Shown: positions 3,001 to 33,000, numbered from the stretch's first letter. The stretch: DNA of 64,000 nt from an uncultured Planctomycetales bacterium (GCA_964354795.1 CAYHBB010000040.1:76593-140592), one strand, 5' to 3'. The notes: generated by a model from the letters alone, not told the origin. Program-made: numbers and translations.

Positions 3001-6000
3001 GTGCCAGGGGCATTTATCACTATAATCATTCTTCCAGATATTCCATAAACTGTCGCCTTCCTTGACAATGATAGTATCAGCCGCCCTCTTTTGTGGCTGA
3101 GCAACGGATTCCGCGTTTACCAAAGATGCAAATAAAGTTGAGGTAAGGATTGTAGCCAGCGATAGAAAACCGAGCAGCTCAATAAAAGTTTGGCCGCTGA
3201 CAACCTTTGCGCCCCTAATATAGCGTTGCTCAGGGATCGTTCCATCGCTAAGGGTATTGCGCAGCCGGTTATCTCTTGCAGGACCATGTGGTGCCGGACT
3301 GTCCAGCCCTTTGGTCACCGACCAGAAAAGAATATCCTTGGACGCTCCGATAAAAATAGAACGGTATGTATTCTCTCCTACGAGAAAAGTTATCTCTACA
3401 AAATTATATTCAGCATTAGTATGGACAATTTTGTAGTGGGCATTGATGATGATCTCCAGCGCCTTCTTCAATGGTATATCTGTCCCGCTTAAATCTTTTT
3501 CGGTCAACCCGCCACTGACAAAATCCTGAGCGATTCTTTCCTCTGATTCTCCCGTAGCCCTGGCAAGCTGCATTATCAGGGAATGCTGCATAAGCTTATC
3601 TTTTAAGGGAAGATTCGTTTTGATCTTATTCGCGCCTTCCTGTGGTTTCGCCTTGGACTTTCTTGCTGCTGCAACTACGAAAATCAGCCCTGCTACCACT
3701 AATACGCCAAAACCTACCACTAACCAAAACGGAAAACCCAGAATATTCGACGGAATCGTTGCAGTAATAGTAGTTATTGAGGCAACTAACGCAAAATCCA
3801 AAGGCACAATGGAAAAAATACCTTCCGGGCGGGGATGGGTTTCTGCGGACGATTGAGGATCTGCTGGTAATGAAGAATCAGGCATAGAGGATTTCTTTAA
3901 CAAATCAGCTACCTGAGCGGTTAACTGCGAGTTTCTAAAAGGCTTATGCATTATGGCATCTATAACAGTAAGATCCAAACCCCTGATCACATAACCGGAG
4001 ATCAATATAACCGGTATATTTTTATTCTTCGCCTTTACCTCTTTAGCTAATTCTCCGCCGTTTTTACCGCCGGGCATTTGAAAATCAGTTATGACTAGGT
4101 CAATATTTTCTACCCCTAATATCTTAAGCGCCTCTTCGGCATTAAGGGCGGTCAAAATATCATATCCTTCGCCACTTAACACCGCATCAAAAGTGCGCAA
4201 GATCATGGGTTGATCATCCACGAACAGTATTTTCTTCTTAGCGACAGATCCGGATTCAGTGATATCTTGAGAAAGCTGAATGGCCCCGTTTCTCGTTGAG
4301 TCCTCTTCTTCCTTCTGCGTATTCACGGGCTGAAGGCTGGGGATGACTTCCGAGGCGGGTTTGAAAACGCTTATCTCGGCAGAGCTTTGCCTGGCCTCGT
4401 CAGCAGCGCACTCCATTATCTTCGAAGACATTGCAGAAATAGGGATTCTCTGGTGCGGTATTCCGGCTCTGGCTATGCTATCCGGCATCTCTTCACAATA
4501 CCTGCTCCCATCTTTTGCAATTTCGCTTGGCGTAATATGCTGGACAAGAACTATGCCTCCGTTGCCCGCAATTTCTTTCGCTCCCGCCGTTCCATCCGAT
4601 CTCAAGCCTGATAAAACAACACAAATAACATCCTTATTGAATTCTGCTGCTGCCGATTTAAATAACAGGTCGATGGGAGAATACGCAATAACCTTACTTC
4701 TCCTAATGACCTCCCCACTAGCCGCGCTATCGAATAAAACCATAACTACCGGATAGCCGTTGTTATCTTTTTCAATCCAAGCATCCCGGCTAGTAACAAG
4801 TATCATCCCGCGCTCTAAATAGAACCTCTTTGGCGAATCCACACTTGGTTCACACAAAATGATCTTTCTCGACTTGTTTTGCTGAACAAATTCGGTAAAT
4901 GCGGCATAGCAGGGCCGTAAGTGTTCGTTAATTATGACCGGGGGATGATCCTGCGGCAATCCTTCAATTATCTCTTCGATCGCTTCATATCCACTGCGAG
5001 ACGCGCCGATCACGATTACCTTTCCTTTGTAGTCGATTGGCTTATGCGTGTCCGCTTGAGGAGTGGAAATTACTGTACCGAGAAGTATTGGTAGAATCGC
5101 AAGTGCCGCAATCGGCCCGGCGGTGGCTAGAATACTTGTGCCGATGCCGGCAAGGGCAAGCTTAATCGCGGCCCAATGCGGCGCGATAAAAAACGTTATC
5201 AGCGCGCCTACCGCCACCAACCCAATGAGCGCGATCAGGCTTACCCCGAGCTTAGTCGAGGGGCCTTGGCCTTCCTTCGGGGACACCCTTCCGATTTCCG
5301 CCAAAATTCTTGGCGGACTCGCCGCGTTTTGTGGCGAGGGCTCCCTGGCTGTCCCTTTTGCCATGAGGCCCCTTAACCTGATTAACTCATCACGGAATTG
5401 CTTTAGTGAAGAATACGCGCCGCTTCTTACCTCCCGGTGAAAAGCGCTAACTTCGCCGATCAGCCTTTGATTAACAGCTGTGTCATCAGAGAATCTTAGG
5501 CCGGGGATGATTTCCTCTATGAGCCTTCCTCCTTGCTCCCACAAAGCCGCATTAAAAAGCAAGCATTCTAGCTTAGGATAAATAGATAATTCCGTTTTTT
5601 TGTAATCAATAAAAATAACGTCTCCATTAGCAGTGACAATTTCATTATTGTCATTAATATCCCATATGCCGCGCACCCCTTTTTCCTCAAGATAGATGCA
5701 GATCTCGGTGATTTTTATCACGATATTAAATACCTCATCAACATATTCGCTAAGCGGCCTGCCTTTATATTTAAGAAAATGATGCGAGAAATCCCTGCCT
5801 TCTACATAAGGATAGACTATCGCCTCAGAATAGATATACGTATCATAATCGTCGGAGCTGATCCATAATCTCTTTCCGGGGTTTAATTCCGGCCTTGCGG
5901 TCATTCTGCGGGGACGATACACTTGAGAGTAATCGCCGCCTATCCTGTCAAAAGCCTCCTCTATGCCGTCACAGTGCGCCGTGTCGGAACAACCTTCCCG

Positions 6001-9000
6001 CTCTGTTTCAAGCTTGCGAATAACCACTAATTTCGCGGTATCCTCATCTACAGCTAAGTCCAGGCGCCGGGTATCTAACCGTCCGAAAGTACCGAGGATA
6101 AGGTATCTTTTATTTTCCTCCCCAAAGCTAAGCACTAACTCTTCGCATGGTTCTGGGGCCAGAACAATCCCTACCGGCCTTTCCCTGTTGACCGCTATGC
6201 GCATTAGTTCCGCGATCATCCTGTTCCTGCGGGACCTGTCCTCAAAGAAGAACCTAAACAGGTCCTCCGTGAACGCATCAGGCCTGTTTTTCATCCAGAA
6301 GAACAGCTCATCAAAACTCTCCCATTTCAGATCTTCCACTTCCCAAGAGCCGGGATTAGCCTTATCAAGCCTGGCCATTTCCTCGGCGATCCTATCCGCG
6401 TTCCCCTGTAGCTCATAATGTATCTGTGCCAGCGTTTCCGCCCTTCCTTTTATCCTGGACATTTCTTCTTCGGTCATGGGCAGGATAAAAAACGCCCTTC
6501 TTTCCTTATTGGAATCAGTTTCTGAATCATAAATAAATTCCCCGGGGACTCCCACCGGAATAAGCCTCTGCTTTAATCTTTCCTTAAATGTATCTGTCAA
6601 CTCCTCTTGGTCATATATATGCATCTGCTTTGTGACTTTATTGACAACTGAATCCAAATAACTAAAACCCGCCTCCAGATGCCCGCCGAATATTGTCCAT
6701 AAGTGGGGGTATTTCTTGAATCCTGCGCGCTGCTGCAGGATAAGGCCAAAATCCGGGGTTACCAGGGCGACATTTGCGGTCCTGTGCCAAAGGCCGGCGG
6801 CTTCAGCGATATTCTTATCTGCCTGGCCGATTACCTTTTCTTGGCCGGTAGTTGAGTTAGGGTCCAAAATATCGATTATTCTTCCGCTAGGATATAGAAA
6901 CGCAGGGTCCTCCTGCGGCAGGCGCAGCCTTCTTACAATTTCTTCGATCTTTTCTGCTTCAACGCCCAAGGATTTAAGATTTTCTCTTACTTGATCCAAC
7001 GCGCAGGCGCCAAGAAGGGCCTCTTTGCTTTTTTGCGCTTCCTCCCTTTCGCCGTACAGCTCTTCGTAATGGTTCATGACGCCGTTCATGATGCCGGAGA
7101 TCTGCTCCATCGTAGTATCGAACGGCATCTCGCATGTTAACCCGAGGAGAAAACGGTCGCGGTGCGCAAAGCGATCCATAATGGAGGATACTTCAGCCGT
7201 CAGCTCGGCAGGATCTTTCGCGGGAGTTATCTGTGAAGCCATGATGTTACCGATAAGATAATTTCCGGAAGCGGTAAGGACTTCGTACGCCTTTTCGAGA
7301 TCGACCTCCTCGTCGATGCTGTAGGCGTCGACGTTAAGGCCGGTCATGTTCGACAAAAACGGCGTCGAATCGCCGCAACCGTGGAAAATGACACCGATGC
7401 CCTTCGCCTTCGCCGCGGCGGCTACGGCGTTCACACGCCGCGTGATGCAATCGTCGTAATACGACGGCGTCATGATGGCGGTCGAAGGCTCAAGGATGAC
7501 GATAGCGTCCGCGCCGGCCGCGGCATACGCCTCGGCCTCCTGAGCAGAGACCTTTACGCAATAATCGAGGAGCGCCCCGAATGTCTCGGGATCGTCAAGC
7601 ATCGCCATGGCGGCATCCGCTTCGCCCACCAGGCGCGCGGCGAGAGTGAACGGCCCGATCACGTAGCCGACCTTAGCGACCTTGTTGCCGTATTCCACGC
7701 TGAGCGCGGCCATGGCGTTTATGAATACGCCGGTGCGGCCGTCCCTGTCGATCATCGGAAGTTTCAGTTTCGCGATATTCTCCTTCGTCAGAGTAAACGC
7801 CGGCCCAAATAACCTGCCTTCCTGGTCGATATGTTTCGGCCCGAAAACGGACCGTACCGGAAGCGCGCCGCTCTCTTTATTCGCCTGATAAACGGCCTCC
7901 GGCCATGATGAAAGATCCATCATCGTAAATACTACGTCGAGCCTGAGAGAATCCTGGACGAACCGTATAACCTCAGCCTGCTTTGACGGATCGGTGGCAA
8001 GATCCTTTACCGAATAGTCTTTACGCTCGTGTTCGTTAAAAAATTTCACTCCGCCGAAACTTATAAGCGGCATCCACATGGCTCTATTGCGCATATCGTC
8101 AAAGGTGATCCTTGCGGCTTCGGGCGCCGGAGCCGCTTCGCCTTTATCGACCCTGCCCCCGTCCAACGTCTCGCGCACCACCGCCCCCAGCATGCAGGCG
8201 CCAAGGATTAGCGGCAGGCTGTTCGGCGCGACAAACGCCGCCAACGCGCCCAGCGCCACAAACTCAAGCAACGCAATCATGCCTTGGCCAGACGCAGGGG
8301 ACACCCTTTCGATTGGCTTGATGGGTGTCCCTTGATTGGGTTCATGGGTGTCCCCATCTTGACAGAAGGAAGAACGCAGGACATACACAAAGGTCTCTTC
8401 TTGGATAAATACAGGCGCTCCCTCGCCCATATCATTCCATTCGCGGGACTTGACTTGGCGCTTATACGGCCCAAACTTAAAATAAGAATGATTTTCCCTG
8501 CCGGAAAACTCCTTTATTTTACTTTCGATTACGCGCGAAGCCTCAACTGAACAATGATCATCCGGGAATACTGAATGCCGGAAAATAACCCTTGCCTGCG
8601 CGACGAGATACTCCTGGACATTCGCAAAGAAACATTCAACATGTTCCTTATATACATATCTGTACCCGCCGTCAACAGACCTATCCCAACCGTCGACTGG
8701 AGAAGGAGTAAAGACAATAAGGTTAAATCTCCTTCCTTCCAGCCCCTGGAATAGATCTCCGCAGACAAACTCAAGCCTGCCCGGATTTGCGTTATTGTAA
8801 CCTAAGCTTTCGGCATTGGCCCGGGCGCAATCGACCGCCGCCTCTTTTACATCTGTAAATGTCACATGGCCGGCTCCCCGGCTAAGCATGATCAATCCTA
8901 ATATGCCTGAACCCGTGCCCAGATCAAGGCAGCGCTGGCCCGAGATGTCCCTGCCTAAGCGCTTTGCGATCACCCCTGTCAGCATGCCGCTGGGGGTGTA

Positions 9001-12000
9001 GACATCTCCCCCTGAAATTACGTACCCATCAAGTTCGGCTACATAGACACTCTCCCTCTGACGATAACTATACCTGCTTTTCAATGGTACCGGAAAATCC
9101 TTAGGCCTGGCGGAAGGCTTATTTCTTTTTATTCTGATCTTCTGGAAACTTCCTTCTTTCGACCATCGACGGGCGAGAGATTCCGGGACAAAAACATCTT
9201 CAGAATCTGAGAGGCTGCAGCACAATAAAAGCAGAGCTAATGCAAGAAAACTTAAATTGCCTGCGGAGACCACTGGCAAAGCTAAAAAATGTGCCAGCGC
9301 TCCGAGAGCCACCAGACCCGTTAGAAATACCAAAACGCTTACCTTGCTGACCAAAATTTCTAACGGGGCCAGCCCAAGGAGAGCAATCAGGATTGCCCCG
9401 AGCTTAGCCGGGGGGCTTTGGCCGGAAGATGAAACCCGGCCCTGTCTTTCCTGCATTGCCTTCTGCATTGCTTCGGCTAAAAACCTACAGGAATCCTCCC
9501 AGATGACACCTTTATTTATGTATAGGACAATTACCCCTTCTTTTCCTTTTAGTCTTTCCTGAACAATCTCTTTTGAACCATCGGTCCTCAAAATAACAAA
9601 AGTATCGGGCTTTATAGTTTTAATTTCCGACGCAAGCTGATCCCCATCCATTGTACACATATGCAAATCAGTAATAGCTATATCAAAGGGGCCTTGTCCG
9701 CTTTTGAATATTTCTATTGCCTCCTCTGCGCTATGTGCCGAGACAATGATGAATGCTGGATCGATCTTTCTTAATTGCCTGACCAGCAATTCTAAATCTT
9801 CTTCAGCATGTTCTATGACTAAAATTTTAATTGGAATATTTATATGTTGTGCGGATTGAATAGTTGCGGCGATAAAGAGGAGGCCGAGGCCAAGCGCCGC
9901 AATTGGTGGGCCGTGGTGCATGAATGCGCCGGCGATGGCAAGCTTAACCGCAGCCCAATGTGGCGCGATGACAAAAGCCGTCAGCGCGCCAAAGGCCATC
10001 AGCCCAAGAAGCGCGATCAGGCCCTGGCCACTGCGTGATCTATTTATCGAAGCACTGCCGGCCTTTCTTTCCACATACTCATCCACCGCTTTTAAGAATG
10101 CCCTGTTTTTCTTTGATTCAAGATAATAAAATGTATAGGCGTGCAATGGTCCCGCGGCGGAATCCATAATCTCTTTTTTCTTTAACCCAAACTTGGTCAA
10201 TTTATCAAAGAAACCTACTGCTGACCAAAGTTTGTCTTCGCAGGCTTCCGCGTGAATGGCGCCGTTGCCTATCTTCTGGCTTAAGGCTGCCGCAGCCTGC
10301 ACAAGCCTTGTGCCTACATAAGACAGCCCATTTTTGTTACCGGATGACCTTTGATGTTGCGGCTTGACGTCAACGGAACCGATAGCAAGCGCGTTATCCC
10401 TGTCGGGATACTCATAGTAATCCAGCACCTCCCTGTCAAATTTAAGGATCCCGGCCACTTTCTCCTTAGCGGTCAATACCAGCTCTTCCGATTCAAGATT
10501 AAGGAATCCGCGTATGATACAGGGCACTTTATTTCCGGCATCATCAATGACAAAAGTATCCTGCCTGAACCTGAAAAGCCCCCTGCGCAAAGCGCTAAGC
10601 GGATCGCTTATTGCTTCAAGTTTCAATCCTGCAGGCATCATGAGGGACAATTCTTTTTCCGCCTCGCTGGCAGAAGTAAAGTGCCTAGAAGGTATACCGC
10701 AGGATTCTGCGTTTACGACAAAATCCTGCCTGTCATCAAAATAAAGCATTTGCGAAGGCTGCACATAAAATTCCTGCTCGGTAAGCAGTAAGAATTTACG
10801 GAATATCTGCGCCCCGTCTCCCTTTCTAATACCCATCTCATAGGAGGCGTAAATACGGTCTGCCGCGCTTAACACTTCATATTTCCGCTTCAAATATGCA
10901 AGATGCATATGATTGGTATCGCTTAGGAAAGCCACTTTGATTCCGCAAGCCTTGAGCTTTTTTATCAGGTCAGCCGTATCCTGCCTTAGCTCGTATGAGC
11001 CGTTCCAGATACGCTTAAACGTCGCAAAATCAACACCCTCCAATTGAAGCTCTTCGGACATCTGCGCTACGAACTTACTTGTCGAGACCTCTCCTCTTTC
11101 GTAGCTGTGGTAGACGCCTGAATCCCTTAAAATAGCCGTTACCTCTTCTACTGTCTTATTGGTAAAGCCTTCTTTTACGAATCTCTCAGCTACCCTTTTA
11201 AAATCAAAATAGACAACAACGTTTCCAATATCAAAGACTACAAACCTTAACCTATCTGTGGATTTCTTAGAAACTGAAGAGGAAGTGTGCGTGGAAGACA
11301 CCGCTGCGGCAAGGAACGGGAGGAAAGCTATCGAAGCCAGTGGCCCGGCAATGGCAGGATGGCTCGCAAGACCAATGATGGCCGCCAGCAAGCCCAACCC
11401 TGCGAAACCAAAAAGTATAAAACACGCTAAATTATGATCAAACCAACCATGCGATCTTCCATTGGAAGAAGTGCGTTCGAGGATCTTCTGCTGATAGTGC
11501 TTTATCCAATAAAAAGCGTTATTAAGCCTCTTCTCCTGCTTTTTGGGATCCAACGCTTCTTTTAAAAAATCCACCCCGTCTTTACTTATATCAGATTTTT
11601 CTGACGCCTTAATAATAGTGTCCCTGTACTTGATGAAGGCCTGCAAGACCAGAATCTGTGTTTGTGAAGCCCTGATCTCATCCTCCTCGAATCTTAACGC
11701 CCCATACTTGATCTCATTAAGCATGTGGCCGTAAGCCTCATGGACAAAATCAGCCAGCATCACCGACGGATCATTTAAAACATTTTCATTAAGAATGATC
11801 ATATAGCTGTTTGAATTCGTTCTTTTGCTGAATATCTCAATATGTAACCCTGCAGGAGCTCGCCCTTCAAATCCCTGCGGGATATACCCTTTGCTGAATT
11901 TATAAAGCTGGACCATTTGCTCATCCGAGGCCCTGCATATACGCAGCCTATCGGTTTTCCAAAGCTCCAACACCAAGGTCAAATCAGCTTCCCCGGAGAA

Positions 12001-15000
12001 AGCGCCAACCATAGCCATCGCGACCTTGATCAGATCCAGTTTCTCTTCTTCGATCGCCTGAGCGGATACTTTTTCCAACAACTTTAATTCTTCCAGCTTA
12101 GCATCCTTAGGGCTCAATATTCTTCTGCCAAAATCATCCTTCATACCAAGCCCATTGACAGAGAGCTTAACAACCAATTTTACTCCAAGCAATGCTGCGA
12201 CAAGCGCCAAAACAGAAGCGATTACCGTTACTTTAGGTTTTCTGAAGAAAGCGAACACGCGGCTTCGGTCGGCGATTTTTGCCGCATTGATCAACCGCCC
12301 TGCTTCCTGATGGGGGCTGGGCCGGTCTTTTAAGGAATGCTCTATGACTTCGTGGATTAAGTCTTCTTTTGCTTCTTGGGTTTCTTTCTGGAAAGAACTC
12401 AGGCTTTCTTCGGTAACGATCAGGGTGATTTTTCCGTCAATGCTGATGATGACTGCGCCAAAATCCTTATCTATCCCTATTTCCCGATGCCTGACTACCG
12501 CGATACGATCAATACTTTGGACTACGGGCCCGGCGCGGATATCTTTAGCTTGAGCAAGTATTTTGCCTATCCCCTCCTGCTGCCCGGTTAAATACGCATT
12601 CACCCAAGGCATATCAACTTTGATTATTTTATTCTGCCCGAAGACTTTCTCAATTCTTTTTAGATCCTTACGTTTTAAGGCTCCAGTTTTACCGCGATTA
12701 TTTTCATCCTCTCCGGGCAATTCAGCGTCGAAAACTGTTTCCGCCTGGTTTTTCCAGAGCTTCGCTGTTTCCCCATTATGTCTCACCATTATAATCTTCC
12801 AATCAGCCCTAAAGGGATTCCAGTAATTCTGTCTTAAGTTTCCCTGAAGGATATGCGGGTACTTTCTCTTTATCCGTTCCCAGGTTGAAACATAAAACTC
12901 ATCAATGCCCATAGATCGGGCTACCTTCATGACATGCCTTATGGCAGCGTTGTTCCACACCCGGTAAGGATTCTCTTTAAGTTTTATCTGCCGCACGCCT
13001 CTGCTGGGATGCACTTCTTCAATAAAAAGAGCGGGCCTGCCGTCGCAGTAAAGATCTATTATTCCCACCCTCAGCCTTCCAAAAGAGCCATCCAGAGGAA
13101 GATAGGCATCGTACTCCGTAGGCGGGAATTCGACCAGGGCAGAAAGCTCAGGATGTCCGTCGATAAAACCTTCTTGCGGGAATATATCTGCAAACGGCAA
13201 TATCCGGTAATCAAAATCTGATTCTGTTAAATCACAGCGCGCAGGTATCATAAGGTTGCTGCCATCGCAAAACTTATATTCCCATTGGAAATCAGGATCT
13301 ACCTTTATCCTCTCAAAGAGCTCACCCGTTAATCTGTCTTTTTCTATTTGAGTCAATCCTTTTTTATCTTCCTCCGTTGCCACTCCGATGGTGCAGGCAC
13401 TAAGCATTAACGCCGCCGGCAGATAACAGGAAATAGCAGAACCAATCCCCGTGAAAACGAGCGCGGAAAAACCAAAGAAACCAAAGAGTACGAACATTAT
13501 TGGATACTGGTAGTAATAATTATAAGGCTCGAGGGTATCAATAATAATATCGGGATTACGCGGCCCATTGGTTTCCTTTGTGTACATATATTTATTCACG
13601 TGCCTGAATCGCTGCATTATCTGCCACCATTCCGGAAAACGTCCGCGCGCCCTGACCTTAAGCCGGCCCCTCCTTACTTTCTCATCCGTAACTATCACTT
13701 CGGCAAATACGTCGAGAAAACCGTTATCCTGCGGTATCCTGTTGACCCCTTCCACTATAAACACATCTACATTTGAGTTATCCTTGCATAAACCAGCGAA
13801 TGTCATCTCTGCCCATGATTCCAGAGGGGTCCTTTTTTGTTCTTTGAAGGCAGTTTTTTTGTTCATTCCGTTTGATTTCAACCAATCAAGCAGTGTATTT
13901 CTTATTAGGGTCTTACCGCTTCCGGGCTTGCCCTTGATCAGGACAACCACCGGCCTCTTGCGGCCCTTTGCCAGCTCCTCTTGAATGCGCTGCTTTAAGA
14001 CAACCAAACCCTGTCTTAAGCCAAATGCATTAGGTGAAGACAGGTAATCGGACCGGGCCATGCCAAGCAAAAACGGCGCGGCAATAGACACTGAAGCGAA
14101 TAAATTGAACCAGTGGTTTTGGGCCGCTTCCCATAAATCAAAATCAAAATTAGAAATTGATATGATCTGAGCCAGAAATGCCAAATACCAAAGCACAGCA
14201 GCGCCAAATATACCCCAGAATACCCACCGTCCAAATAGACTGAATATCTTTTTGAAATCAATATGCCAACAGCTGGGCCTATCCATTGACTCGGTTGCCT
14301 TAAAGACTTCTATTCTTAACTCCTGTGGTAGCTGAGTATAGATAGAATCATCGAGGATAGCTGCCTTTGCCCAATGTGTGATCGCTGTTTTTTCATTACC
14401 AAGAAAATAATGGATGTAGCCGAGATTTCCATGCGCCGCAGCGATATTTGGGTTACTAACCAGGACATCCTTGAAAAAGGGAATGGCTTCGTGATACCTT
14501 TCTTCTTCGCAGTATTTTAACCCCAGGTCAAATAATTCTTTTATTGTGAGCTTGGAATGCCGCAGGGTATATCTTTTTTCGCGGTTTTGACTAAGTTGAA
14601 CGCACATCCCTCCCAAGACAAAAAACGTAATAGTGGCGAGAACGCTTGTGCCGATGCCTGCCAGCGCAAACTTAATCGCGGCCCAATGCGGCGCGATAAA
14701 AAACGTTATCAGCGCGCCAATCGCCACCAGCCCAAATAGCGCAATCAGGCTTTGGCCGGAATTACCCTGCTCCTCAGTCGGCGGATTCAATGGATCATTG
14801 GAACGGTAGTGGTCAATAGAATAAATTTTTCTTATGATATGTGGATAGCGATTTTTATTTTGATATCCAGGAATAAATATATTATAACTTTTATCAATCC
14901 TTACTTCAGATACTCTGGCTAAAGACAAGAAAACCATTTTTACTTTTTGAATATGCGTTCGTAATTCATCAACTATCCCACGATCAAATTTCTTTAACCT

Positions 15001-18000
15001 GCCTCTAACAACATAGAGATCAATCACACATTTATACTGTCCGAATGCCTCACACAGAGAAAATGGTACTGCCAATAAAAGCCTCTTTAGGCGCGAATCA
15101 GCAGTTCCTTTAAATAGATCAATACGCTTACACAATATTTCATAAATGCAGTCGAGCTCATGACAAACCTTTTCTAACTTACTAATTGATGGCTTTTCCA
15201 TGGCGTTAGCAATCTCTTCTGCCATTTCCAAGTGAGGCCACACTTCTTCTTTAATACTTTTTGCTTCTCTACGCACTAGTTTAACAACTGTTTCTTGAGG
15301 CGTTCCCCGAGGCGCTGCCCTTTGATCTTGTGGTTGCTTCCCATTCGCAGAAACCACCACTCCCAGCGCGCAGGCGCCGAGGTTAAATATGCCAAGCCCT
15401 AATGCCGACGCATGGATCGGCCCAGTGATAAGTATCGGCGCCAAGATAAACGCCAGCACCACTAGCCCAAGAATTCCAATTAAGCTTTGTCCAGATTGGT
15501 TATTGATACATGCTGTCGCAATTGTGTCGGAAACAGTTTCCCCTTGGTTTTTCCAGAGCTTCGCTGTTTCCCCATTATGCCTCACCCTGACAATCATCCA
15601 ATCATACCTATAGGGAATCCAGTAATTTTGTCTTAAGTTTCCTTGACAAATATGTGGATATTTTTTCTTTATCCGTTCCCGGGTTGAGGCGTAAAACTCA
15701 TCAATGCCCATAGATCGGGCTACCTTCATAACATGCTTTATGGCAGCGCTGTTCCACGCCCGGTAAGGATTCTCTTTGAGTTTTATCTGCCGTACGCCTC
15801 TGCTGGGATGCACTTCTTCAATAAAAAGAGCAGGCCTGCCGTCGCAGTAAAAATCTATTATTCCCAACCTCAACCTTCCAAAAGAGCCATCCAGGGGAAG
15901 GTAGGCATCGTAATTCGTAGGCGGGAATTCGACCAGGGCAGAAAGCTCAGGATGTCCGTCGATAAAACCTTTTTGCGGGAATATATCTGCAAACGGCAAT
16001 ATCCGGTAATCAAAATCTGATTCTGTTAAATCACAACGCGCAAGTACCATAAGGTTTCTGCCATCGCAAAACTTATATCCCCATTGGAAATCAGGATTTG
16101 CTTTTATCCTCTCAAAGAGCTCGCTCAGCAACCTGTCTTTTTCTGTTTGCGACAATCCCTTTTTAGAAACACCCTTAAGACTGTTTCTTCCCGGACCCTT
16201 GTCGTCATTTAACTTACGGCAGAACTGTCCCCCATCCTGAACACACGCCGCCACCATCACTGCGCCCAGCGCTCCTGCCGGATGCATAAGGCCGGCAACC
16301 GCCAGCGCGCCCAACGCCACCAGCCCGAGGAGCAAAGGTAGGCTAAAGCCGGATTGAGAAGATGGGGAAACGTCCCCGATTTTATTTATTTTATTCAATA
16401 TTTCTCTTAACCCGCGTAAGTCTTTTTCCGCGGCATTGCTCATGGCAATAATTAAGTCAAAATGCTCACCCCTAAGCTGCTCCACCTTTCTGCTGATTAA
16501 TTTATTTATAAAGCGGCGTTTGCGCTTCAGGGTGCGCAGGCTGATTTTCTCTTTGAAGTTCTTCTGCTCGTTCATTGCAAACTGCATTGTCGCCTTTGAA
16601 CACAGGAAGCTCTTTATCTCGGGAAGGGTTAACCTGATCGATACACCCTTTTCGGTCATAACCACCCTGGAAGCCACCTCTGGCCGGTTGCGGATAAATT
16701 CTTTTAAGGCCCTGGCGACATAACCGTAGTCTGCCTCGCCAAAATACACCAGGTTCCTGATCGAGGCAAACTCTGGGTTAACCACAAGCTCCCGCAGGTG
16801 CGGCTGTTGTGCAGAACTAATGCCGATTACCTGCTGGTAGAGCTTGCGCAGGGTAAGGTGAAACTTAAATTCAAAAACCGCGTTTTCGCTTATTGCATCA
16901 AATTCTTTTACCTGGATTTTATCCCTGATTAGCACCCTGTCAATTGCCTTCAGCCTTCCGGGGCTAAGGTTCTTTAATGTGCTCTGCCTGTTTATGACAA
17001 CCTCGTATAACCCCGATATCTCGCCAGCCCATCCCAGCACGCGGTAGCGCCAACCTTCACCTGCCTGCGGCCACTTAGCCATATCCTTGACCGCTGCCCG
17101 GACAAATCCATGGATCATCTCAGCTGCCTGCCCATTGTATTCTAATAACTGCGTAACTTTCCTGCGGAAATTTGCAAACGAAAAGTCCCGGTTCACGAAG
17201 TTGCTCAATTTCTCTAAATCTTCCTCGACAGAAACGAAGCCAGGATTATTTTCTTGGGAAAGCACTGCGCCAAGAGCAAAAATGCCAAGCGCTAGTGCCG
17301 ACGGGGCATGAATCAGGCCGGCAATAAGTATTGACGCTAAGATAAACACCAGCGCCACCAGCCCGAGGAGCGCGATCAGGCTTTGGCCGGAGTCAGAGAA
17401 AATAGAACCGTCCCCTTTATTTGCAGGCAGGCTGAAGCCGGATCTGGATTTTTGGCTTTGTTCTCCTATCCTCTTGTGCAACAAGGCCTCCACGGAGGTG
17501 GAAGCGTCCCCTTTACTATATTTTTCTCTCATCGTGGCAAACTTCTTCGCTATTATTCGCCTTTTTTCTACACTATTCAACATCCGAGGACGGAATATAA
17601 GATAGGACCGAAAACCGGATAATTTAATATCAATAACCACAGGGGCCGTTTGTCCGTCTGCTAATGTTCTAACAACCACGTTAGCAGAGGATAAATCCGC
17701 GAAATTAAGTCTGCTACTCTGCATAAACTCTTCAATCCTTGCCATCTTATTCCAAAAGTCAGCGCTTTTGACCACCCCGTAATCTTCAAGGCGGGGAGAA
17801 ATACGGCCAGTGGCATCCAAAATACATTCTGTTTTTAGCGCAGTTTTTCCCCTGTATTTAGCGAATCCGTAAATTTTAGCAAAGCTATCCCGTAGATCAT
17901 AAGGGATAGACGGCGCAATACGTCTATACATTTTGTATTCATAACTGTTAAAATCCAGGATAAATAAATGCCGTAATAATGTGCGTATCCTCACTTCGGG

Positions 18001-21000
18001 CATAAGGATCTTAAAAACAAAGTTACCCTGCCTGTAAACGCGCCGGTGCGTGCCTCGAGCTACATAATCATCTTGTGCCTGCTGGCCATTCACAACGTCT
18101 CTGTGGTCGCGGTCGTCCATAAAAGCTGCTATCGTCTCTATTACAATCTGCCGTATTAATCGCAAAGACCAATTGCGAATCTCATGACTATTGACCTGCA
18201 TCGCCTCTTGTAATTCCTGAACTGTCTTAGGGCCCTTTCCGAAGCCTCTATGCGGACCAAATAAGCACAAGCCGCCCGGCCTTCTATAGGTAAAAACATC
18301 GACATAATCTGGATAATCTCTTAGGTTTTCCATCGAAAGAGGGCGCGGACCCAACAAAGACATTTCGCCTTTGATAATATTTACCACTTGAGGCAATTCA
18401 TCAAACAGGTTCTTCCGAAGGAACCATCCCAATGGTGTATGTCTTCTCTCTTCTGGTATGTTTGTATGAGTGAGGGTTCTAAATTTATAGATTCTAAAAG
18501 GGCGGCCTTTATATCCTATACGTTCCTCAGTATAAAAAACGGGGCCCTTCGATGTGAGTTTTATTAACGGTGCGATAATAATCGTTGCAATACAAAGAAC
18601 CGGCAACAACGATATCCCAACAATCATATCCATAGCCCTTAACCGCTTTACCCACCGCCGATAAGGAGTCTTCTCGTGTTCCTCGGTGCTTATTTTCCAA
18701 TTAAAACCAGAGTGCCCGGAGTTCGTTATTTGGCCAGCCGCGCTGATTCCATCGCTGTCGTTGCGGAGGTCTTCGCGGAGGGCATCTCTTGGGCCAATGT
18801 AGAACTTCCAAAGGATATATTCATCGGTCTCAACCAGAGAAAATCCTGCCTTCTTTAAGCATTTCTCTGTTTTGGCAACTTCTTCCGGGTCGCGATAAAA
18901 CTCTCTCTCATCTCTGCCGAAATAAACCGTAATTGCCCCGAGAGGACCCTTTATCAGATCGCTGTTTACACAGATGGCCATAATCAACACTAAGGCCTCT
19001 ATTCCGTAATCATGGTCCCTAAAATTAACCTTACTGAAAGGACCGCCGTGTATTGCATACCTGAACCATCTTTCCTGGGGCGGGTCAACAGGGCAGTCTA
19101 TAATCCCATGCCCTATGGCACAGGATTGGTCTGACCGTAGCGATATCAGAAAAACGTGTTGCTGTGGTAGTGCCTCTAAAGAGAATTTTCCATCCTCGCC
19201 GATCCGTTTTAAGACCCTGAAGAACGTGATTTCTATGTTTTTAAATCTGAAAACCTGGCAACTATTCTGGTCGAGGCTTTGCGGAAACATTACCCTGCCG
19301 ATTCCCGCAGGACAATTATAATCAGCCATACCTTTTATAAGCAGTTTGACGCGGCGGGCGGTTTCCTCAGCCGCCGAAATTTGTTCTTTTTCAAAACGAA
19401 CGCTTCGGATATACTCTTGACTCAACGGAATGGCATGATGGGGCACGGATGGGGAAGCGGGGACGTTTCCCCCTATTGTAACAGCTTTATTCTCATTGGG
19501 TTGCGAAGGCGAATTAAGAATTTGCTTATCGGAAGGCTGGATTGTTGCGGCTAATAGCGGGACGGCGGAAAGCGCAGCAAACGGCCCTGCGGTGGCGGGA
19601 TGACTCAGTAAACCAATAATAGCCGCCAGCACGCCCAGAGCCAAGAGGCCAACAAATAGTGTGATTAAGTTCTGGCTGGATGACCGACAGGGACTGTCCC
19701 CGCTTTTTGGGGACTGTCCCTGAATTTGTTTCCCTAAATCCTTGCGCTGCAACGTGCCCAAAGAGGGGGAAACGTCCCCTCTAATACACTCCCATTCCCC
19801 CTGTTCGAATTTGACTTTAACCGGCTCTCCCCTTACCCCGGATCTGTATACTGCTGACATTAACTTAATACCAATGCTGTGATCGGCAAGCGAGGATCTG
19901 ACTATTGCCTGCGTCAAATCTTTGCTTTCTGCCAGCACGGACAAGAACTCTTTCGCTGGCAAACTATCGTCTTCCGGCTCTACCGGCATAACCTCGATAC
20001 TCTTAGCGCTTCCTGTGACTACCGGGTTAGTTAAGAATAGAAGTTCGGCATGGCTGTCTCCTCCGATAGCTGCTTTATCCGAAATCCCGAATTTAGCGAT
20101 TCTTCTATACTGCACTGCTGCAACCGGGCCCTGATGAAGACTTAACAACTCATATTTGACCCTGAAACGGTCTTTTGAGATTATGGTTACCCCTTCATGG
20201 AGAAACTTTATACTAACCTGACATCTTTTTTCATCTCCATGTTTAAATGTGATAAGAATGTTTGCGTTGATTTCCGAAAGCCCTCTCAAGTTTTCTATAA
20301 CTCCCGGATCGATTTCGGAAAGCAGCTTTATTTGGCCGTCCCTGTGCCGGAAAACCGGAAAGGTAGTAAATGAATCCATCGGACGCCACAAATCAGCGTA
20401 AACTACCGCGCTATCAATATCCTTCGGATTAGTATGGCGGATCAACCACGGGATAATATCAAGGAAATGGTAGCCTGAATGCGAAATCTTGCCTCCGGCA
20501 GACTTATACGCCCATTGATTGCTTCCGTAAGACCCAAGACTCGCTTCATGCTCGTCTTTTGCAAATATCCAGTAACCGTCATTTGTCTCGTAATTAATGC
20601 TTGTAATCGGCACGGTTATCCCGTCGATACGGTTCGCAGAAATTCTTGCGGCTATTTTATTGAATACATCGGAGTATCTTTTCTGTGTAGCCGCCATAAA
20701 AAGCAACCCGGGCTTACTCTTGGCTATTCGCATCAGCTCTTCATAATCAGCAAATATCTGGCTAGCCCCGGCTTCGTCAATGCTGCAGCCTGATGGAGTA
20801 GTCAGAGGTTTATCCACAAGGACATGGTAACCAGCATTCAGCGCCCAGGAAACGTAGGCTTTATGCGAGACTGGATGAGTTGAAACAATCACTGCTATTC
20901 TTTCATAATCCTTTAATTTATCCTTCAGGCTTTCCTGTGTATCAAAGAACCGTTTGACTTCTTCCTCTGCAGGAACCCTTTTTCTCCATTCGTCGGGGAC

Positions 21001-24000
21001 ATATCGCTCTATCTCAGGCTGCTTTAAGCCCATACGTTGATAATATCTCTTGAGCTCCTCTTCATGCCCGCTATAAACTACTTCCTCCGCATCTCTACCC
21101 CTTGTGCCATTTTCTATTCTAAAATCAACAACAGCCAATAAGTGGCATTTTTCCCGATAACCCTCTAACGCGCGTAAATGAGCACTTAAAGCATACCTAC
21201 CGGCACCAATCAATATCACCCCAACTTTATGTTGTGGCAAGGAACAGCCGATAGAACCTTGCACTGAAGCCTCCCTGAAGGGAAGCGTGCCATCTTTATC
21301 TGCCTCATAAATATAATGCGTGTTATCGCTTATCGATGCTCTGATAGTAAAACTGGGGGGCGTTTCGGGGTTTTTGGGCTGGATGATCGCGCCGATGAGT
21401 GCCAGAGGCAGTACAATCGCAGCTGCCGGCGGCGCATGAATTAATCCTGCGATTAAAACCGGCACTAAAATATAAACGAGCACCACCAGCCCAAGAAGCG
21501 CGATCAGGCCTTGGCCGGAAGTAGGCTTCTTGTTAGGTTGAGGACTGACCAGGAAGGCCTTATAGAGCAGGGCGATCTCTTCGGCAGTGGCTTTTTCTTT
21601 CAATTTAAAATCCTTTATTGCTGCCTGAATAAGGTCAGAGGCAAAGAGGGTTTGCTCTTCTAGAGGCACCTGTTTCGCACAGGCGGCCTTTGGCTCTCTT
21701 TTAAGATAAGGCACCACTACGCCTAAGATATTATCTCGTTTATGTTTCTTCAAGCTAGGGATAAGGCAACCGAAATTACTTACTTTGGTAATGAAAAGAA
21801 GTGTATCGCAGGCAGTAAAAACCGGTGATTTCTCGGAAATGAAAGCGCTCTTGTACAGGCGGGCCCTCCAGTAGCGCGGAGATCCCGTGATAAGGTTATT
21901 CTTTGCGTGCCATTCGCGGAAAACCCTGCTGAAGACAGCCTCGTCATTAGCGTATCCTTTAACTTTATTCATATGCACATCATTGAGAAAATTCTGATAA
22001 GCCCTCATAAAACGCGAAACCAGCAAAGAATCTTCGGTTATAGAAATGATCAAATCTAATTGCCCTACTGCTCTAGCTGCCTTTTTCTCTGTAGTGGCGG
22101 CAGCAATCAATATGGAGGCGCGCTTAATCGCGTTAGTAAGGCCTGTAAATTCGACTTCTCTGAAGAACGGCCAGCGCAGTAATCTCTCCAACTCTGCTTT
22201 TGCGTTTTCCCGCCCTCCCCCTTGGAACAGTGACTTAATATCTTTCGCCCTGTCGATCACCCTGTTAAAACGCCTTTCTCCACACTGGCGCAGTTCAAGA
22301 CGCAATGATTCAAGATTTGAAAACATACCTTCTATGGCATGCAGGCGAAGCCCGATAAAAGGCAATGCTGCGCTCAGGCTTTCCGCCGCCAGCTTGAAAT
22401 ATCCTTTCTCAAGCAACTGCGCTGCAGTCTCCAGATCACTACGGCACTCTTTCTTAGATTCTACCTTTACGCCCTTAAGCTCATCGGCGAGAAAAGCGAT
22501 TTCCCTTACCAACTCCATAGCAGTATCCCTGGCTCCGGGATAATTGACAAGCTCTGATGATTTCCTTGAAATATCTTCAATCCTGTAAGAGAAATCTTTC
22601 ATCTTCCGGTAATCGCGGGCCAAAGAAGCAAAGATCTTATCCAGTATCCTGTGCCAGCGGTAAAGCGTAAATGTCTGCGGGCGCTGCCTGACCAAAGTCG
22701 TTCCCTCTTCGCTGAGAAGCCTGCCCATCAATATGGTGAATTTTCCGTTCTTTTTTCCTTCTTTTTCTTCGACAATCTTCTCTTTTACTTCCTGACAGTT
22801 TGCGCGTATGCGCTCATCCAGAATTTCTTTTCTTTGCTCTGCGGTTTTTCTGGATAAAGCGCTTAAGATCGCGCAGGCTGCCGGCTCATTGCCTTTTTCG
22901 ATCAGGCCCACTATTTCATCCGCTCTCTCTATACCGCTGTTTCGGATAACAATTTTAAGCTGGGCAATATTTCTCGCCACCTCTTCAGCTCCCGCCCTAC
23001 GCGTTCCTAAGCGTAAAGTGCGATGGTGCAGATCCTTGATTCTTTGGTGTCCGGCTTTTAACCTGGCCTCATGCCCATCTAAAGTCATGCCTAAAAATCC
23101 GCAGCAAGCAATGGCCCCGATTATAAACACTGGCTTAGCCAGTAAAATAGCGGTAACCCCTATCAGAATGAAGATTAATGGCAAATATTTGAACAATGAA
23201 ATAAAGTTATACAAACTGGAGTCCAGAGAAAGGCAGGCTTGTTTAAGAAAATTATATTGCTCTCCTATATCTTTTGCGCTAGCCACATCCGTTTCGGTGC
23301 AATTCCAAGTACTACCTTGATCAGGATGGCGGAAAGGAAAGTTAGTCTTTCCGTCAAAACCACTGACCAGCCTTATTGAGCCATCATTAAAAACCTTTGT
23401 CCCCGGATAAGGAATGGCTATATTATAGGACGCGCACGTGCCGAGTGCGCAAAGCATGATTAATAACGGCGGAGCACAAATAGCATGGCCCATGAACCCG
23501 GCAAGCCACAAAGGCAGGGTAACGGCGCATAAGAGAAATAGCCCCAGGGGCATAAGGTATTCGCTAAGAATGATGCCTGAAGCGGGATCACTGTTTTCGC
23601 TTCCTGCTCTTTCTTCGATTTTGTCGATGTTATCTTGGATCTCCTGCGCTGCCTCGCGCAATAGCTTTACGGCTTTTCCTAAAACAAATATATTCCTCTT
23701 ACGGTTTTCTCCAAGAAAAACACAGTTATAGAAATAACGCCCCAGGGTACTCCACAGGATAGGGTCGTTTATTGTGCCTTTATTTTCCGGCGGGTTTACG
23801 CGGCCCAGATATTTCTCCGCATTTAGCATTTCAAGAATGGCTAAATTCCCTGCAAGTTTTTTGCTTTCCTCAACAAATGTTTTCTTCGGCAAGATCAATT
23901 CTCCCTTGCCATCCTTGATGTTTTGCTCCAGTCCTCCCAGTAATACCGTCAGCGAGGAATTTAGATCGTGCTGGATCCAACTGTTAAAACCTATTGAAAA

Positions 24001-30000: not shown

Positions 30001-33000
30001 CGTCCAGTCCGAAAAATCGGCCTTCTCCATCGAAGACCCCTCGGGGAAAAGCTTCATGATCAAGACCGTGCGGTCTTCAGCGGGCAGCTCGGCAAATAAG
30101 TGCGGAAAATCGTTTCTTATCCCGAATCTATGCAGCCGGTAATAGATTTCTGCCTGCGGGGATTCCTGCGGTTCAAACGAAAACGCATGGGGGGAAGTCT
30201 TCGGCTTAGAAACCAGCACAGCGCATCTTTTAAGATGGATCCCAGCTTTCAGGTATTTAAAGACCGCGAACATCCCTCCGTCATCAATAAAGCTGAAGCG
30301 CGAGCCATCCACGTCATATTCATGGCCCTCTTTAGGATTCCTGATGCATAAAGCCTTATGCGCGATCCTCGCCATTTCTTCATCACTGAAGGCGCCTGAG
30401 GAGATCATACCCATCATAGATAAGCCAAATACCGCTATTATCCCGGAATTTACAACAATCTCCGACACTAATAAAGCGCTAGCAACCAAGCCAAGCCCAA
30501 TAAAAATAAACAACCCAGATATGATCAAGTCTACGCGAAGTAAAGATTTGCTCTTTATCGTTTCTTGAATAACCCTCCCTAACAACAATTCTGCGAACAG
30601 TTCGATATTGTCGCATTGCGGATTAAGCGTTCTCAGTATTGAAGATGCTTCCGATAACATGCGTCTTTTTAGCTTATCTTTATCATGCCTGAATTCAGCA
30701 TGGTTTGAGTAAAGGAAATATTTATACGCCAGGCTGCCTATTACATCTATCTCCTTATCCTTTAGTTCTCTGACTATTTTATCCAGGCGTTCATTTAAGG
30801 CCTTTTTATGCAGGTATTGACTGATCAGTATTACACAGATAAACGCAATTAAAATACCAGCGACAAAATAGACGCAAGGATGGATTACGGCAAACGGCAA
30901 AATTGTAAATCCCATTGCGCCGGGATTATTATCTGACTTATAAAACTTACGCTTAAGCAACCATACAATAGGTATCAGGGAAGCTAATATTACGGCGAGA
31001 TTTTCCCGGATCTTCTCCCAGATTATCTGAATGATATCCGGCACTCCGGGTTTGCCTTCCTCCTCTATATTTATCTTCCTATCTCTCTCGACGTTTTTCT
31101 GCGCATTTTCAATAAGATTTCGCGCTGCCTGAGGGCAGGCGACCTGTTCGATCAAGCTACCCCCAAGCGTTACGAAATTACTGCCTTTCGCAAAATAAAC
31201 ATTATTGGTGCTGGCTGCTGAGCACAAAACCGATGTGAATAGAATGATGAACGCCGCGAAAATACTGTTTACTGCGCGGCAGGAATCGTTATCCGGCCCG
31301 TTGGCCACCGCCGCTTCCTTTATAATCTTTATTCTCTCCACAAAAAGAGAAGGCGAAGAGTCAAAATGGACAAATACTTTTCTGATGGCAGGAAGATGTA
31401 AATCTTCGGTTAGTTCTAATGTTCCTGAACTAAATCTGACGGCGTTCACAAAAAGGCGCGCCTTGCAGGCAACAGTTCCTTCTCTGGCCATGATCCGTTC
31501 ATATTCCACTTCCTGACCTACGGAGAAATCCAGTATTTCAAGCTGCTTAGAGGCTTCGGTGAATTCCGGTTTTGTTTCAGTAAGCTTCTTAGCTTCCCTG
31601 TGCGTTTTCTTTATTACGGCTTCTTGGTATCCATGGTAGGAGACTGCCTCAAGCGCAGTGGCGAGGTTGCCGTTGAATTTCTCGGAGAAATCATCGGCAA
31701 ATTCTTTGGAAGAGAAATATATTTCGAGGGCACCTTTGTATCTACGCTCCCAGATGAATTTCTTAAGCGGCGGCGCGCGCGGGTTCTGACTGGTGAAATA
31801 GAAGAACTTGACCGGCGTGATGCATATGGCCGCAGAGAATCCGTTGAATTCAGGAAGCGAAGCGAACGCGCGTTTACGGATCAGGGCCTTACACCCCTTT
31901 ACTTCATCATCGCATAAATTCCCGAAAAATCCGTGCTTTTGACCATCGGACCGCCCTTCTTCCCGACTACTGCCGCAATTGCCATTTAAATCTGTGTTGA
32001 CGCGCGACTGCGCAGCTCCGATCTTCACATATGAGCCCTCGCCCCGGCTTACATAATCTACTATCTTAGTGAATATTTCCCTGGCGCTAAGACCCTGCGC
32101 CCGGCAGAGAGTGTTCGTAAAATCTCCGATAACGATCATTTTCTCCTTTGCCCGGGAAAGTGATACGTTTATCCGCTGCAAGCCGTCCATGGTCTCAAGA
32201 AAACCGATATTCTTAAGCTCCCCTTCGCTGCCATATTTACTACGCACCATAGAAACTATCACTACCTTGTTCTCCTGTCCCTGGATAGCATCGATAGTAT
32301 TGACCATAACGTGTATCTTGTGCACATCTTCTTCGCTGAATAGCCTGCGGCCCTGTAAAGAAAGATCGAATTTCACAAACTTAAGGAACGAATACAGACT
32401 CGAGGGATAGGGGTCCTTGATGAAATTTACGATAAAGCTGCGGCCGCGCGGATTAGACATGGCCTCTATATCAACCCTCAAGCTTTCCCTCAAAACACTT
32501 TTATCCTCATCCGTAAGATTAACTTTAGATTGGCCACTGGAACGTATTTTATCGATTACTGACTTTAAACGAAGAGCCAGGACTATCTCTTCATTTTGCG
32601 CAGCATAGGGTGAGATAATCGTGACGTCCTCGAAACCGTAGCGCCAGCTCTCATCCGACTTTACCTGATTTAAGATCAATTCCAACTCGCGCAAAACCGT
32701 GCTTACTTCGCGGATATTATAAGAGGAGAAGTTAAGCTGTGCCTCGCGGCCTGCGATATCAATGAGCTTAAGCGTATCTTCCTCAGCTATCTCCTTATCC
32801 TGCGCCTCATGGTCGCGCGCAAACAACTGGCCATCGTAAAAGATATTCACCAGCCCGGTGATCAACGGATGCGAACGTCTGTTCACTCTAAGCAGGTGGT
32901 GATCAAGGGAAATTCCGCGGTCACGCTGAAGTTCAAATGCGCGCTGGAAAAGAGAAATCTTGAAACTCCAGAGGTTGTCAGGCAAGAATATTTCTTCAAG

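Follow-up and report, generated by a model that had tools for sequence, protein, structure and literature searches.

In-frame copying of a single domain as the probable origin of a dispersed repeat within a giant bacterial reading frame

How does a gene longer than 64 kb come to hold two nearly identical coding segments with unrelated sequence between them? The question is raised by a locus in a stretch of DNA from an uncultured Planctomycetales bacterium (GCA_964354795.1 CAYHBB010000040.1:76593-140592), the whole of which, 64,000 nucleotides (nt), is called the window here. A sequence-only reading of the window had described a recent internal duplication, in which a module together with its hydrophobic linker had been duplicated in tandem and by which the gene was held to grow. 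We find that the repeat is real and lies inside one very long gene, as that reading had it, and that its extent, age and arrangement are different. The gene has its start and its stop outside the window. All coordinates below are window positions, and the two copies are named by protein order, N to C on the minus strand, copy B being the upstream copy in the protein and copy A the downstream one.

1-63999, minus strand: one frame without stop codons, 21,333 codons long and continuing past both window ends (six-frame stop scan)
15526-16164, minus strand: copy B, amino acid (aa) index 15945-16157, a 213-aa orphan domain predicted to be GNAT-like (family hidden Markov model, HMM, 203.9 bits)
12727-13365, minus strand: copy A, aa index 16878-17090 (family HMM, 201.7 bits)

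A repeat search of the window returned 12727-13026 and 15526-15825 as a direct repeat with a spacing of 2799 nt. Alignment with MAFFT, including 300-nt flanks, and codon-wise comparison fixed the edges of the unit at 12727-13365 and 15526-16164, that is, 639 nt without a gap. The copies differ at 59 nt (43 transitions and 16 transversions), giving 90.8% identity in DNA, and 184 of 213 residues (86.4%) are identical in the minus-strand translation. The identity of about 90% that had been proposed was therefore borne out, and self-comparison gave an off-diagonal match at this place; the module size came out smaller, at 0.64 kb and 213 aa instead of about 0.7 kb and 220 residues, with minus as the coding strand. 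The peptides quoted earlier are indeed read from the minus-strand units (...FERIK(V/A)(D/N)PDFQW(E/G)YKFCDG...DGHPELSALVEFPP...), and the pair of shadow open reading frames (ORFs) at 12934-13221 and 15733-16020 proved to be what the repeat looks like when read antisense on the plus strand, its two members standing exactly 2799 nt apart. When the 21,333-aa translation was compared with itself by BLASTP, copies A and B formed the strongest internal repeat of the window (E = 6e-125), the runner-up being only 43% identical, and the family HMM found no third, diverged copy of the domain in the window. The offset between the copies, exactly 2,799 nt, equals 933 codons (3 x 933), and the copies are thus in phase. 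The longest exact run common to both is 63 nt, and the central part of the unit is somewhat more identical than the rest.

The similarity is confined to this unit. At either edge the identity of about 90% drops to background inside one 30-nt bin, and the 80-aa flanks hold no residual homology beyond composition (p = 0.018 on the N side, where hydrophobic composition is held in common, and p = 0.30 on the C side). The 720 aa downstream of copy B have no counterpart downstream of copy A in the self-BLASTP. Tandem Repeats Finder (TRF) reported no tandem array over the region, and scans for promoter and terminator consensus sequences and for Rfam families gave nothing above chance there. The sequence around and between the copies, in protein order, is made up as follows.

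16234-16359, minus strand: linker-family hydrophobic segment, 'SGQSLIALLGLVAL...H(A/P)', upstream of copy B and outside the duplicated unit (linker HMM, E = 1.7e-10)
16165-16233, minus strand: 23 unique residues between that linker and copy B
15502-15525, minus strand: 8 residues between copy B and the next linker
15334-15501, minus strand: linker-family hydrophobic segment with 1-2 membrane passes, not duplicated (linker HMM, E = 5e-16, and hydropathy)
14764-15333, minus strand: helical module of ~190 aa, no Pfam or NCBIfam match
14596-14763, minus strand: linker-family member ('FIAPHWAAIK' sub-type) in which two stretches are hydrophobic (linker HMM, E = 2e-18)
14230-14595, minus strand: TPR-like module, best TPR motif at 14350-14442 (Pfam TPR_2 and TPR_1, weak NCBIfam TPR matches)
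14125-14229, minus strand: hydrophobic segment outside the linker family (hydropathy scans; no linker-HMM match)
13510-14124, minus strand: P-loop NTPase or nucleoside-kinase-like module, Walker A GKPGSGKT at 13909-13932
13366-13509, minus strand: hydrophobic segment directly upstream of copy A (hydropathy scans; no linker-HMM match at E <= 10)
12235-12726, minus strand: soluble segment of ~165 aa downstream of copy A, without linker or family match

Between the copies thus lie 2,160 nt made up of unrelated modules (linker, helical module, linker, TPR, transmembrane segment, P-loop, transmembrane segment), with 5-7 possible membrane passes by hydropathy count. The TPR and P-loop segments that had been placed between the copies are both present. 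The TPR_2 match has E = 5.1e-6 and 26.6 bits, 0.4 bit short of the Pfam cut-off of 27, and the P-loop module, besides its Walker A motif, has weak matches to Zeta_toxin, uridine kinase and PRK06547, with no specific family assignable. By the linker HMM, linker-family neighbours stand on both sides of copy B and on neither side of copy A. The claim that a conserved linker follows each copy accordingly holds for copy B, and fails for copy A, behind which lies the soluble segment.

Both copies are under purifying selection. The Ka/Ks comparison on the DNA alignment, which the sequence-only reading had suggested, was made by the method of Nei and Gojobori (NG86) and counted 26 synonymous differences over 133.3 sites and 33 non-synonymous differences over 505.7 sites. 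This corresponds to a synonymous divergence (dS) of 0.226 and a non-synonymous divergence (dN) of 0.068, with a dN/dS of 0.30 that is below 1 by Fisher's test (p = 2.8e-5). The differences per codon position (14/18/27) fit the minus-strand frame, and no rate asymmetry was seen against the nearest outgroup (7 vs 6 changes). All strongly conserved residues of the family are kept, 33 of 35 such columns being identical in both copies and the remaining two holding conservative exchanges (A/V and Y/F); this, together with the purifying selection, suggests that both copies are probably functional. Differences between the copies are not significantly clustered (a longest identical run of 63 nt has P = 0.10 under random placement), and there is therefore no sign of a recent conversion tract; no significant gene-conversion tract was found in the A/B comparison, and synonymous divergence is alike across thirds of the unit. 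With 59 substitutions and a dS of 0.23, the duplication appears to rank with the youngest of the window's detected repeats, yet it does not look fresh, and 'recent' overstated the case.

What was copied? Neither copy matches Pfam or NCBIfam, and a word-indexed search of the domain against 5.8 billion proteins gave no match. An exhaustive phmmer search of 1.84 billion representative proteins found 40 relatives at E <= 1e-3, most of them inside proteins of 1,000-6,460 aa, and all of those with a named organism are proteins of metagenome-assembled genomes (MAGs) of Candidatus Omnitrophota. No relative in that search exceeded 45% identity; the copies themselves share 86% of their residues, against 39% or less with everything else. 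A single-domain query against GTDB genomes and JGI metagenomes returned no relative; an alignment query returned three distant loci from the GTDB species set, all inside ORFs of >2,000 aa that continue beyond the contig ends, and no locus from the JGI metagenomes. One MAG with a relative in the GTDB scan is labelled Planctomycetia. The domains of the proteins that host the relatives come from the pool that the window ORF also uses, with methyltransferases, sigma-70 region 4, one weak Peptidase_M50 match, HATPase and APH.

The family occurs outside giant proteins too. One complete gene of 200-223 aa consists of this domain and nothing else (ENA ERZ27297473, contig k141_2244626; locus L004, 542-1213), and the unit is therefore autonomous. 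The neighbours of this gene are on the opposite strand. An alignment of 34 sequences shows the motifs PEL..L, GSFG, ALxIxE[VI][QH]PSxGxRxI, an invariant Trp, FYAST and NLxxNYxxPF, and the distant homologues align over the same span as the duplicated unit. Whereas AlphaFold gave an unusable model from the two copies alone (pLDDT 35), the 34-sequence alignment led to a confident one (pLDDT 92.2, pTM 0.89), with residues 1-210 of 213 confidently placed. Because the model is confident over this range, the homologues span the same residues and a stand-alone gene exists, the duplicated unit is predicted to be exactly one folding domain.

When the model was compared with the PDB by Foldseek, it retrieved almost only entries with GNAT-type acetyltransferase titles (NatD, NatA/Naa10, YjcF, YhbS, PaiA and the TacT/AtaT toxins), with probabilities of up to 0.99. 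Judging by entry titles and what is generally known of these proteins, we take about 49 of the top 50 matches to be GNAT-fold proteins, and the C-terminal domain of ICL2 and N-myristoyltransferase, which are among the matches, have GNAT folds as well. In the model, the [Q/H]PSxGxR loop is placed between a strand and a long helix. The domain is thus predicted to be GNAT-like at the level of its fold, and we infer that it could be an acyl-CoA-dependent transferase. A weak match to a LarC fragment (E = 0.017), obtained in a PDB profile search with two sequences, was not reproduced with a deeper profile and was discarded.

Two copies of the domain also stand side by side in each of two Omnitrophota proteins, P0001 and P0002, the latter a complete gene of 4,354 aa in an Omnitrophota MAG. 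The two copies of one protein are 46-49% identical, against 53-63% for orthologous copies, and this duplication is older than, and independent of, that in the window. Intragenic duplication of this domain has therefore happened at least twice. The modules of these two proteins (L005 10001-23065) are set apart by a soluble motif, 'KPEAPDMA', instead of hydrophobic linkers; a regular expression matched it 2 and 3 times, and more variants are visible by eye. It looks like a different, lineage-specific punctuation between modules, and is possibly a processing site.

We consider it quite probable that a single in-frame copying event within the giant gene placed a second example of a whole 213-codon folding unit 933 codons downstream of the first. 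The copied unit would have carried no neighbouring linker or module with it, making this a dispersed, domain-exact duplication, and its new site would lie directly behind another hydrophobic segment. Since then, the changes accumulated would amount to about 0.23 per synonymous site and 0.07 per non-synonymous site. The most likely molecular route would be insertion by replication-template switching or by illegitimate recombination, because the junctions are sharp and non-homologous and the linkers are uninvolved; unequal crossing-over mediated by linkers is disfavoured as a route. Where a frame must stay open over more than 64 kb, only in-frame, domain-preserving outcomes would be expected to survive. 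The hydrophobic segment ahead of each copy may anchor the domain near the membrane. In addition, because the copies stand in the same phase and have stretches of as many as 63 nt in common without a mismatch, recombination between them could delete or amplify a cassette of 933 codons with the frame intact.

The alternative that survives best, which we nevertheless consider unlikely, is that the copies are an old paralogous pair that was homogenised recently by gene conversion limited to the domain, in which case their 86% identity would understate their age. The sharp boundaries coincide with the domain, as this explanation would have it, the two copies agree somewhat better in the middle of the unit, and older pairs are known in P0001 and P0002. 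However, the members of those pairs are direct neighbours in their proteins rather than being separated by 933 residues, and the flanks of copies A and B give no hint of an older, wider paralogy. The lack of significant clustering among the differences and the similar synonymous divergence across the unit also speak against conversion.

Much less probable is the tandem duplication of a segment comprising the module and its hydrophobic linker, as the way in which the gene lengthens. A linker family does exist, some of its pairs are as similar as copies A and B (89% in DNA), which indicates that linkers also spread by duplication, and the adjacent copies of P0001 and P0002 show that the domain can stand side by side with itself. 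But in the window the copies are parted by the 2,160 nt of unrelated modules, no array was reported by TRF, the similarity goes no further than the domain and leaves the linkers out, the sequence behind copy A does not repeat that behind copy B, and copy A has no linker-family neighbour. Neither 'tandem' nor 'module plus its linker' is therefore an apt description.

We give equally little credit to a second copy gained by recombination from the giant gene of a related genome. The literature on giant genes describes rapid evolution and proteins that are mostly unique in sequence, which would leave room for such an exchange. Against this, neither copy has anything nearly as close to it as the other copy among the 1.84 billion representatives (86% vs <=39%), no donor-like sequence was found in any collection searched, and copying within the gene is simpler. 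Least credible of all is an assembly artefact, either two strain variants in one contig or a mis-join: although the gene type makes a metagenome assembly the probable source and a divergence of 9% lies within the range of strains or species, the flanks are unique and differ on all four sides, where a strain chimera would be expected to duplicate them too, both junctions keep the frame of >21,000 codons open, and the divergence shows purifying selection in that very frame. The copies had also been named as a likely hotspot for assembly collapse, which appears unlikely because assemblies with k > 63, or long reads, should separate copies whose longest shared exact run is 63 nt.

Returning to the single in-frame copying of a GNAT-like domain, several points weigh against this account or parts of it. 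The resemblance to GNAT structures is low in score (Foldseek E = 1.5e-3 to 6e-2, TM 0.25-0.46), and no GNAT sequence model was matched in Pfam (both copies and the 34 members, at E <= 10), in NCBIfam or in the PDB profile search. In GNAT proteins motif A, the loop that binds the pyrophosphate of coenzyme A (CoA), is Q/R-x-x-G-x-G/A. The corresponding loop of the domain reads [Q/H]-P-S-x-G-x-R, in which the first position and the Gly are conserved and the last position is Arg in 91% of the sequences. With no sequence model matching and the motif altered, the predicted likeness falls short of demonstrated GNAT membership. The molecular route is read from the junctions alone. No close relative of the giant gene was found in the protein, GTDB or JGI metagenome collections searched, and hence the duplication can be neither polarised nor dated by comparison. 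Finally, an assignment to Omnitrophota would draw on distant homologues and architecture only.

A further idea, to which we give a small chance of being right, is that the domain represents a new GNAT-like family, mainly of Omnitrophota, that works as a pair, and that the in-phase copies let the content of the cassette vary. A domain held in a membrane-tethered giant chain would hardly find a partner from another chain, and intragenic duplication could therefore supply that partner. If so, working in pairs would explain why P0001 and P0002 each have an older tandem pair, of independent origin, and why the window has a younger pair at dispersed sites. Recombination between the copies would then be a built-in way for the giant gene to vary its modules, here a linker, the helical module, TPR and P-loop.

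The linkers can be followed in their own right. In the C-terminal third of the window ORF, from aa 14160 to 19645, the family ('SGQSLIALLGLVAL...H(A/P)...') has about 11 good copies, spaced 250-1,100 aa apart and often with a second hydrophobic stretch behind them.

21367-21522, 19522-19683, 17242-17397, 16234-16359, 15334-15501, 14596-14763, 11284-11445, 9850-10038, 8167-8295 and 5065-5253, minus strand: linker copies

Weaker look-alikes occur at aa 3158 and 6445. The 'FIAPHWAAIK' sub-type has three copies, and the linker at 14596-14763 is 89.2% identical in DNA, over 120 nt, to that at 5065-5253. Judged by this identity, the linker pair would be similar in age to copies A and B, but a separate event. 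The linker family is absent from all 40 proteins that bear the duplicated domain. The linkers appear to have a duplication history of their own, separate from that of the domain. Past copy A in the protein, a module of 230 aa (11446-12144, minus strand) is flanked by a hydrophobic segment and a linker and has no Pfam match; it contains an HExxH motif, HEAYGH, at 11725-11742 (minus strand), and may be metalloprotease-like.

The frame that holds these modules is a mosaic. Run in 1,000-aa pieces against Pfam, it matched cytidine deaminase, three NAD-dependent epimerase/dehydratase units, Peptidase_M50, PGM/PMM, HD, Glu/Leu/Phe/Val dehydrogenase, sigma-70 region 4, transglutaminase core, AAA_11/AAA_12 helicase and protein kinase (Pkinase). 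Further matches were to glucosamine-6-P isomerase-like, PAS, four receiver (Response_reg), GFO/IDH/MocA, bacterial sugar transferase (Bac_transf), YrbL-like, TPR, HAD, small methyltransferase, URO-D, NUDIX, CheB methylesterase and LysM domains. A crude hydropathy scan (Kyte-Doolittle 19-residue mean >=1.9, not DeepTMHMM) marked 47 strongly hydrophobic segments in the frame, many of them members of the linker family. Internal paralogy is detectable (E < 1e-5) over 13.9% of the ORF residues, and over 4.3% at >=50% identity, and most modules are mutually unrelated. As far as similarity is still visible, this points to length gained mainly by accretion of different domains, and copies A and B could at most weakly show how the gene grows, contrary to what had been claimed for them. 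Only seven other ORFs of >=150 aa were found in the 64 kb, all on the plus strand. The longest, at 32809-33702 (297 aa) and 48803-49735 (310 aa), are antisense to the giant ORF and are most likely shadow ORFs.

Some further features of the giant ORF deserve mention. Three modules of the NAD-dependent epimerase or GDP-mannose-dehydratase type stand in a row at ~60200-63390 (minus strand; aa ~203-461, 629-950 and 1010-1264). Over 310 aa the third matches the first at 43% identity, the mark of a duplication older than that of copies A and B. A Peptidase_M50 domain (site-2 intramembrane metalloprotease) is found at 58189-58560 (minus strand; aa ~1814-1937, E = 8e-21), and a homologue of the duplicated domain's family, P0009, likewise has a weak M50 match. 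As pure speculation, the hydrophobic linkers, which contain Pro, Gly and His, might be substrates of this peptidase, the chain being cut into modules. A 22-residue peptide, KTCHAPLQRIEKG[N/D]LLPSVAG, occurs twice with sharp bounds, at 57880-57945 and 44905-44970 (minus strand; aa 2018 and 6343), 13 kb apart, the DNA differing at ~4 of 66 positions by eye. It lies in low-complexity sequence 100-170 aa ahead of a hydrophobic segment, and 'LPSVAGGE' occurs once more nearby.

The pair formed by copies A and B offers a worked example of change in a giant gene, in which a whole folding unit would have been copied apart from the linkers and both copies kept by selection. It also brings to light an unannotated, GNAT-like family, found almost only in long Omnitrophota proteins, whose structure is predicted with high confidence and which merits a name.

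How does this family compare with known GNAT proteins? The predicted fold retrieves NatD/Naa40 (4u9w), YjcF (1q2y), YhbS (4rs2) and TacT/AtaT with Foldseek probabilities of 0.9-0.99, and the C-terminal half of the model follows the order of strand, loop, helix, strand, helix and strand. Its [Q/H]PSxGxR loop would take the position at which GNAT proteins bind the CoA pyrophosphate. Unlike GNAT proteins, the domain has Arg instead of Gly/Ala at the last position of the motif, an N-terminal helix with three strands, and ~8 extra residues ahead of the long helix. N-myristoyltransferase and the mycothiol synthase MshD are single-chain double-GNAT proteins that arose by internal duplication, with their two domains adjacent and packed together. 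Two copies per protein recur in the present family as well (the window, P0001, P0002 and P0038), but those of the window are 933 residues and several hydrophobic segments apart.

By analogy, the window ORF appears to be of the giant-gene kind described in Candidatus Omnitrophota, that is, the 'multi-enzyme' or Archaeovorin-type proteins (West-Roberts et al. 2023, bioRxiv 10.1101/2023.11.21.568195), of which the type example is from Velamenicoccus archaeovorus, and the 'multi-enzyme metabolic cluster' class (Nielsen & Lui 2026, bioRxiv 10.64898/2026.06.07.730766). Like these, it exceeds 10,000 aa in a single frame, is rich in hydrophobic or transmembrane segments (published densities are of the same order), and combines methyltransferase, NUDIX, PGM/PMM, HAD, response-regulator, sugar-transferase and TPR domains. 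Unlike most of them, it shows no SecA-DEAD or C39/S8 domain in the 21,333 aa of the window, both termini being outside it. Repeated domains have already been reported as the rule in such genes; in a published survey of long Omnitrophota proteins, 65% of those positive for Pfam repeat at least one Pfam family, mostly through old events. The duplication described here therefore leaves the current picture of giant genes unchanged and is a fairly ordinary event for a known class of them. Where it appears to differ from the mostly ancient repeats of that survey is in being comparatively young (dS 0.23), dispersed and exact to the domain.

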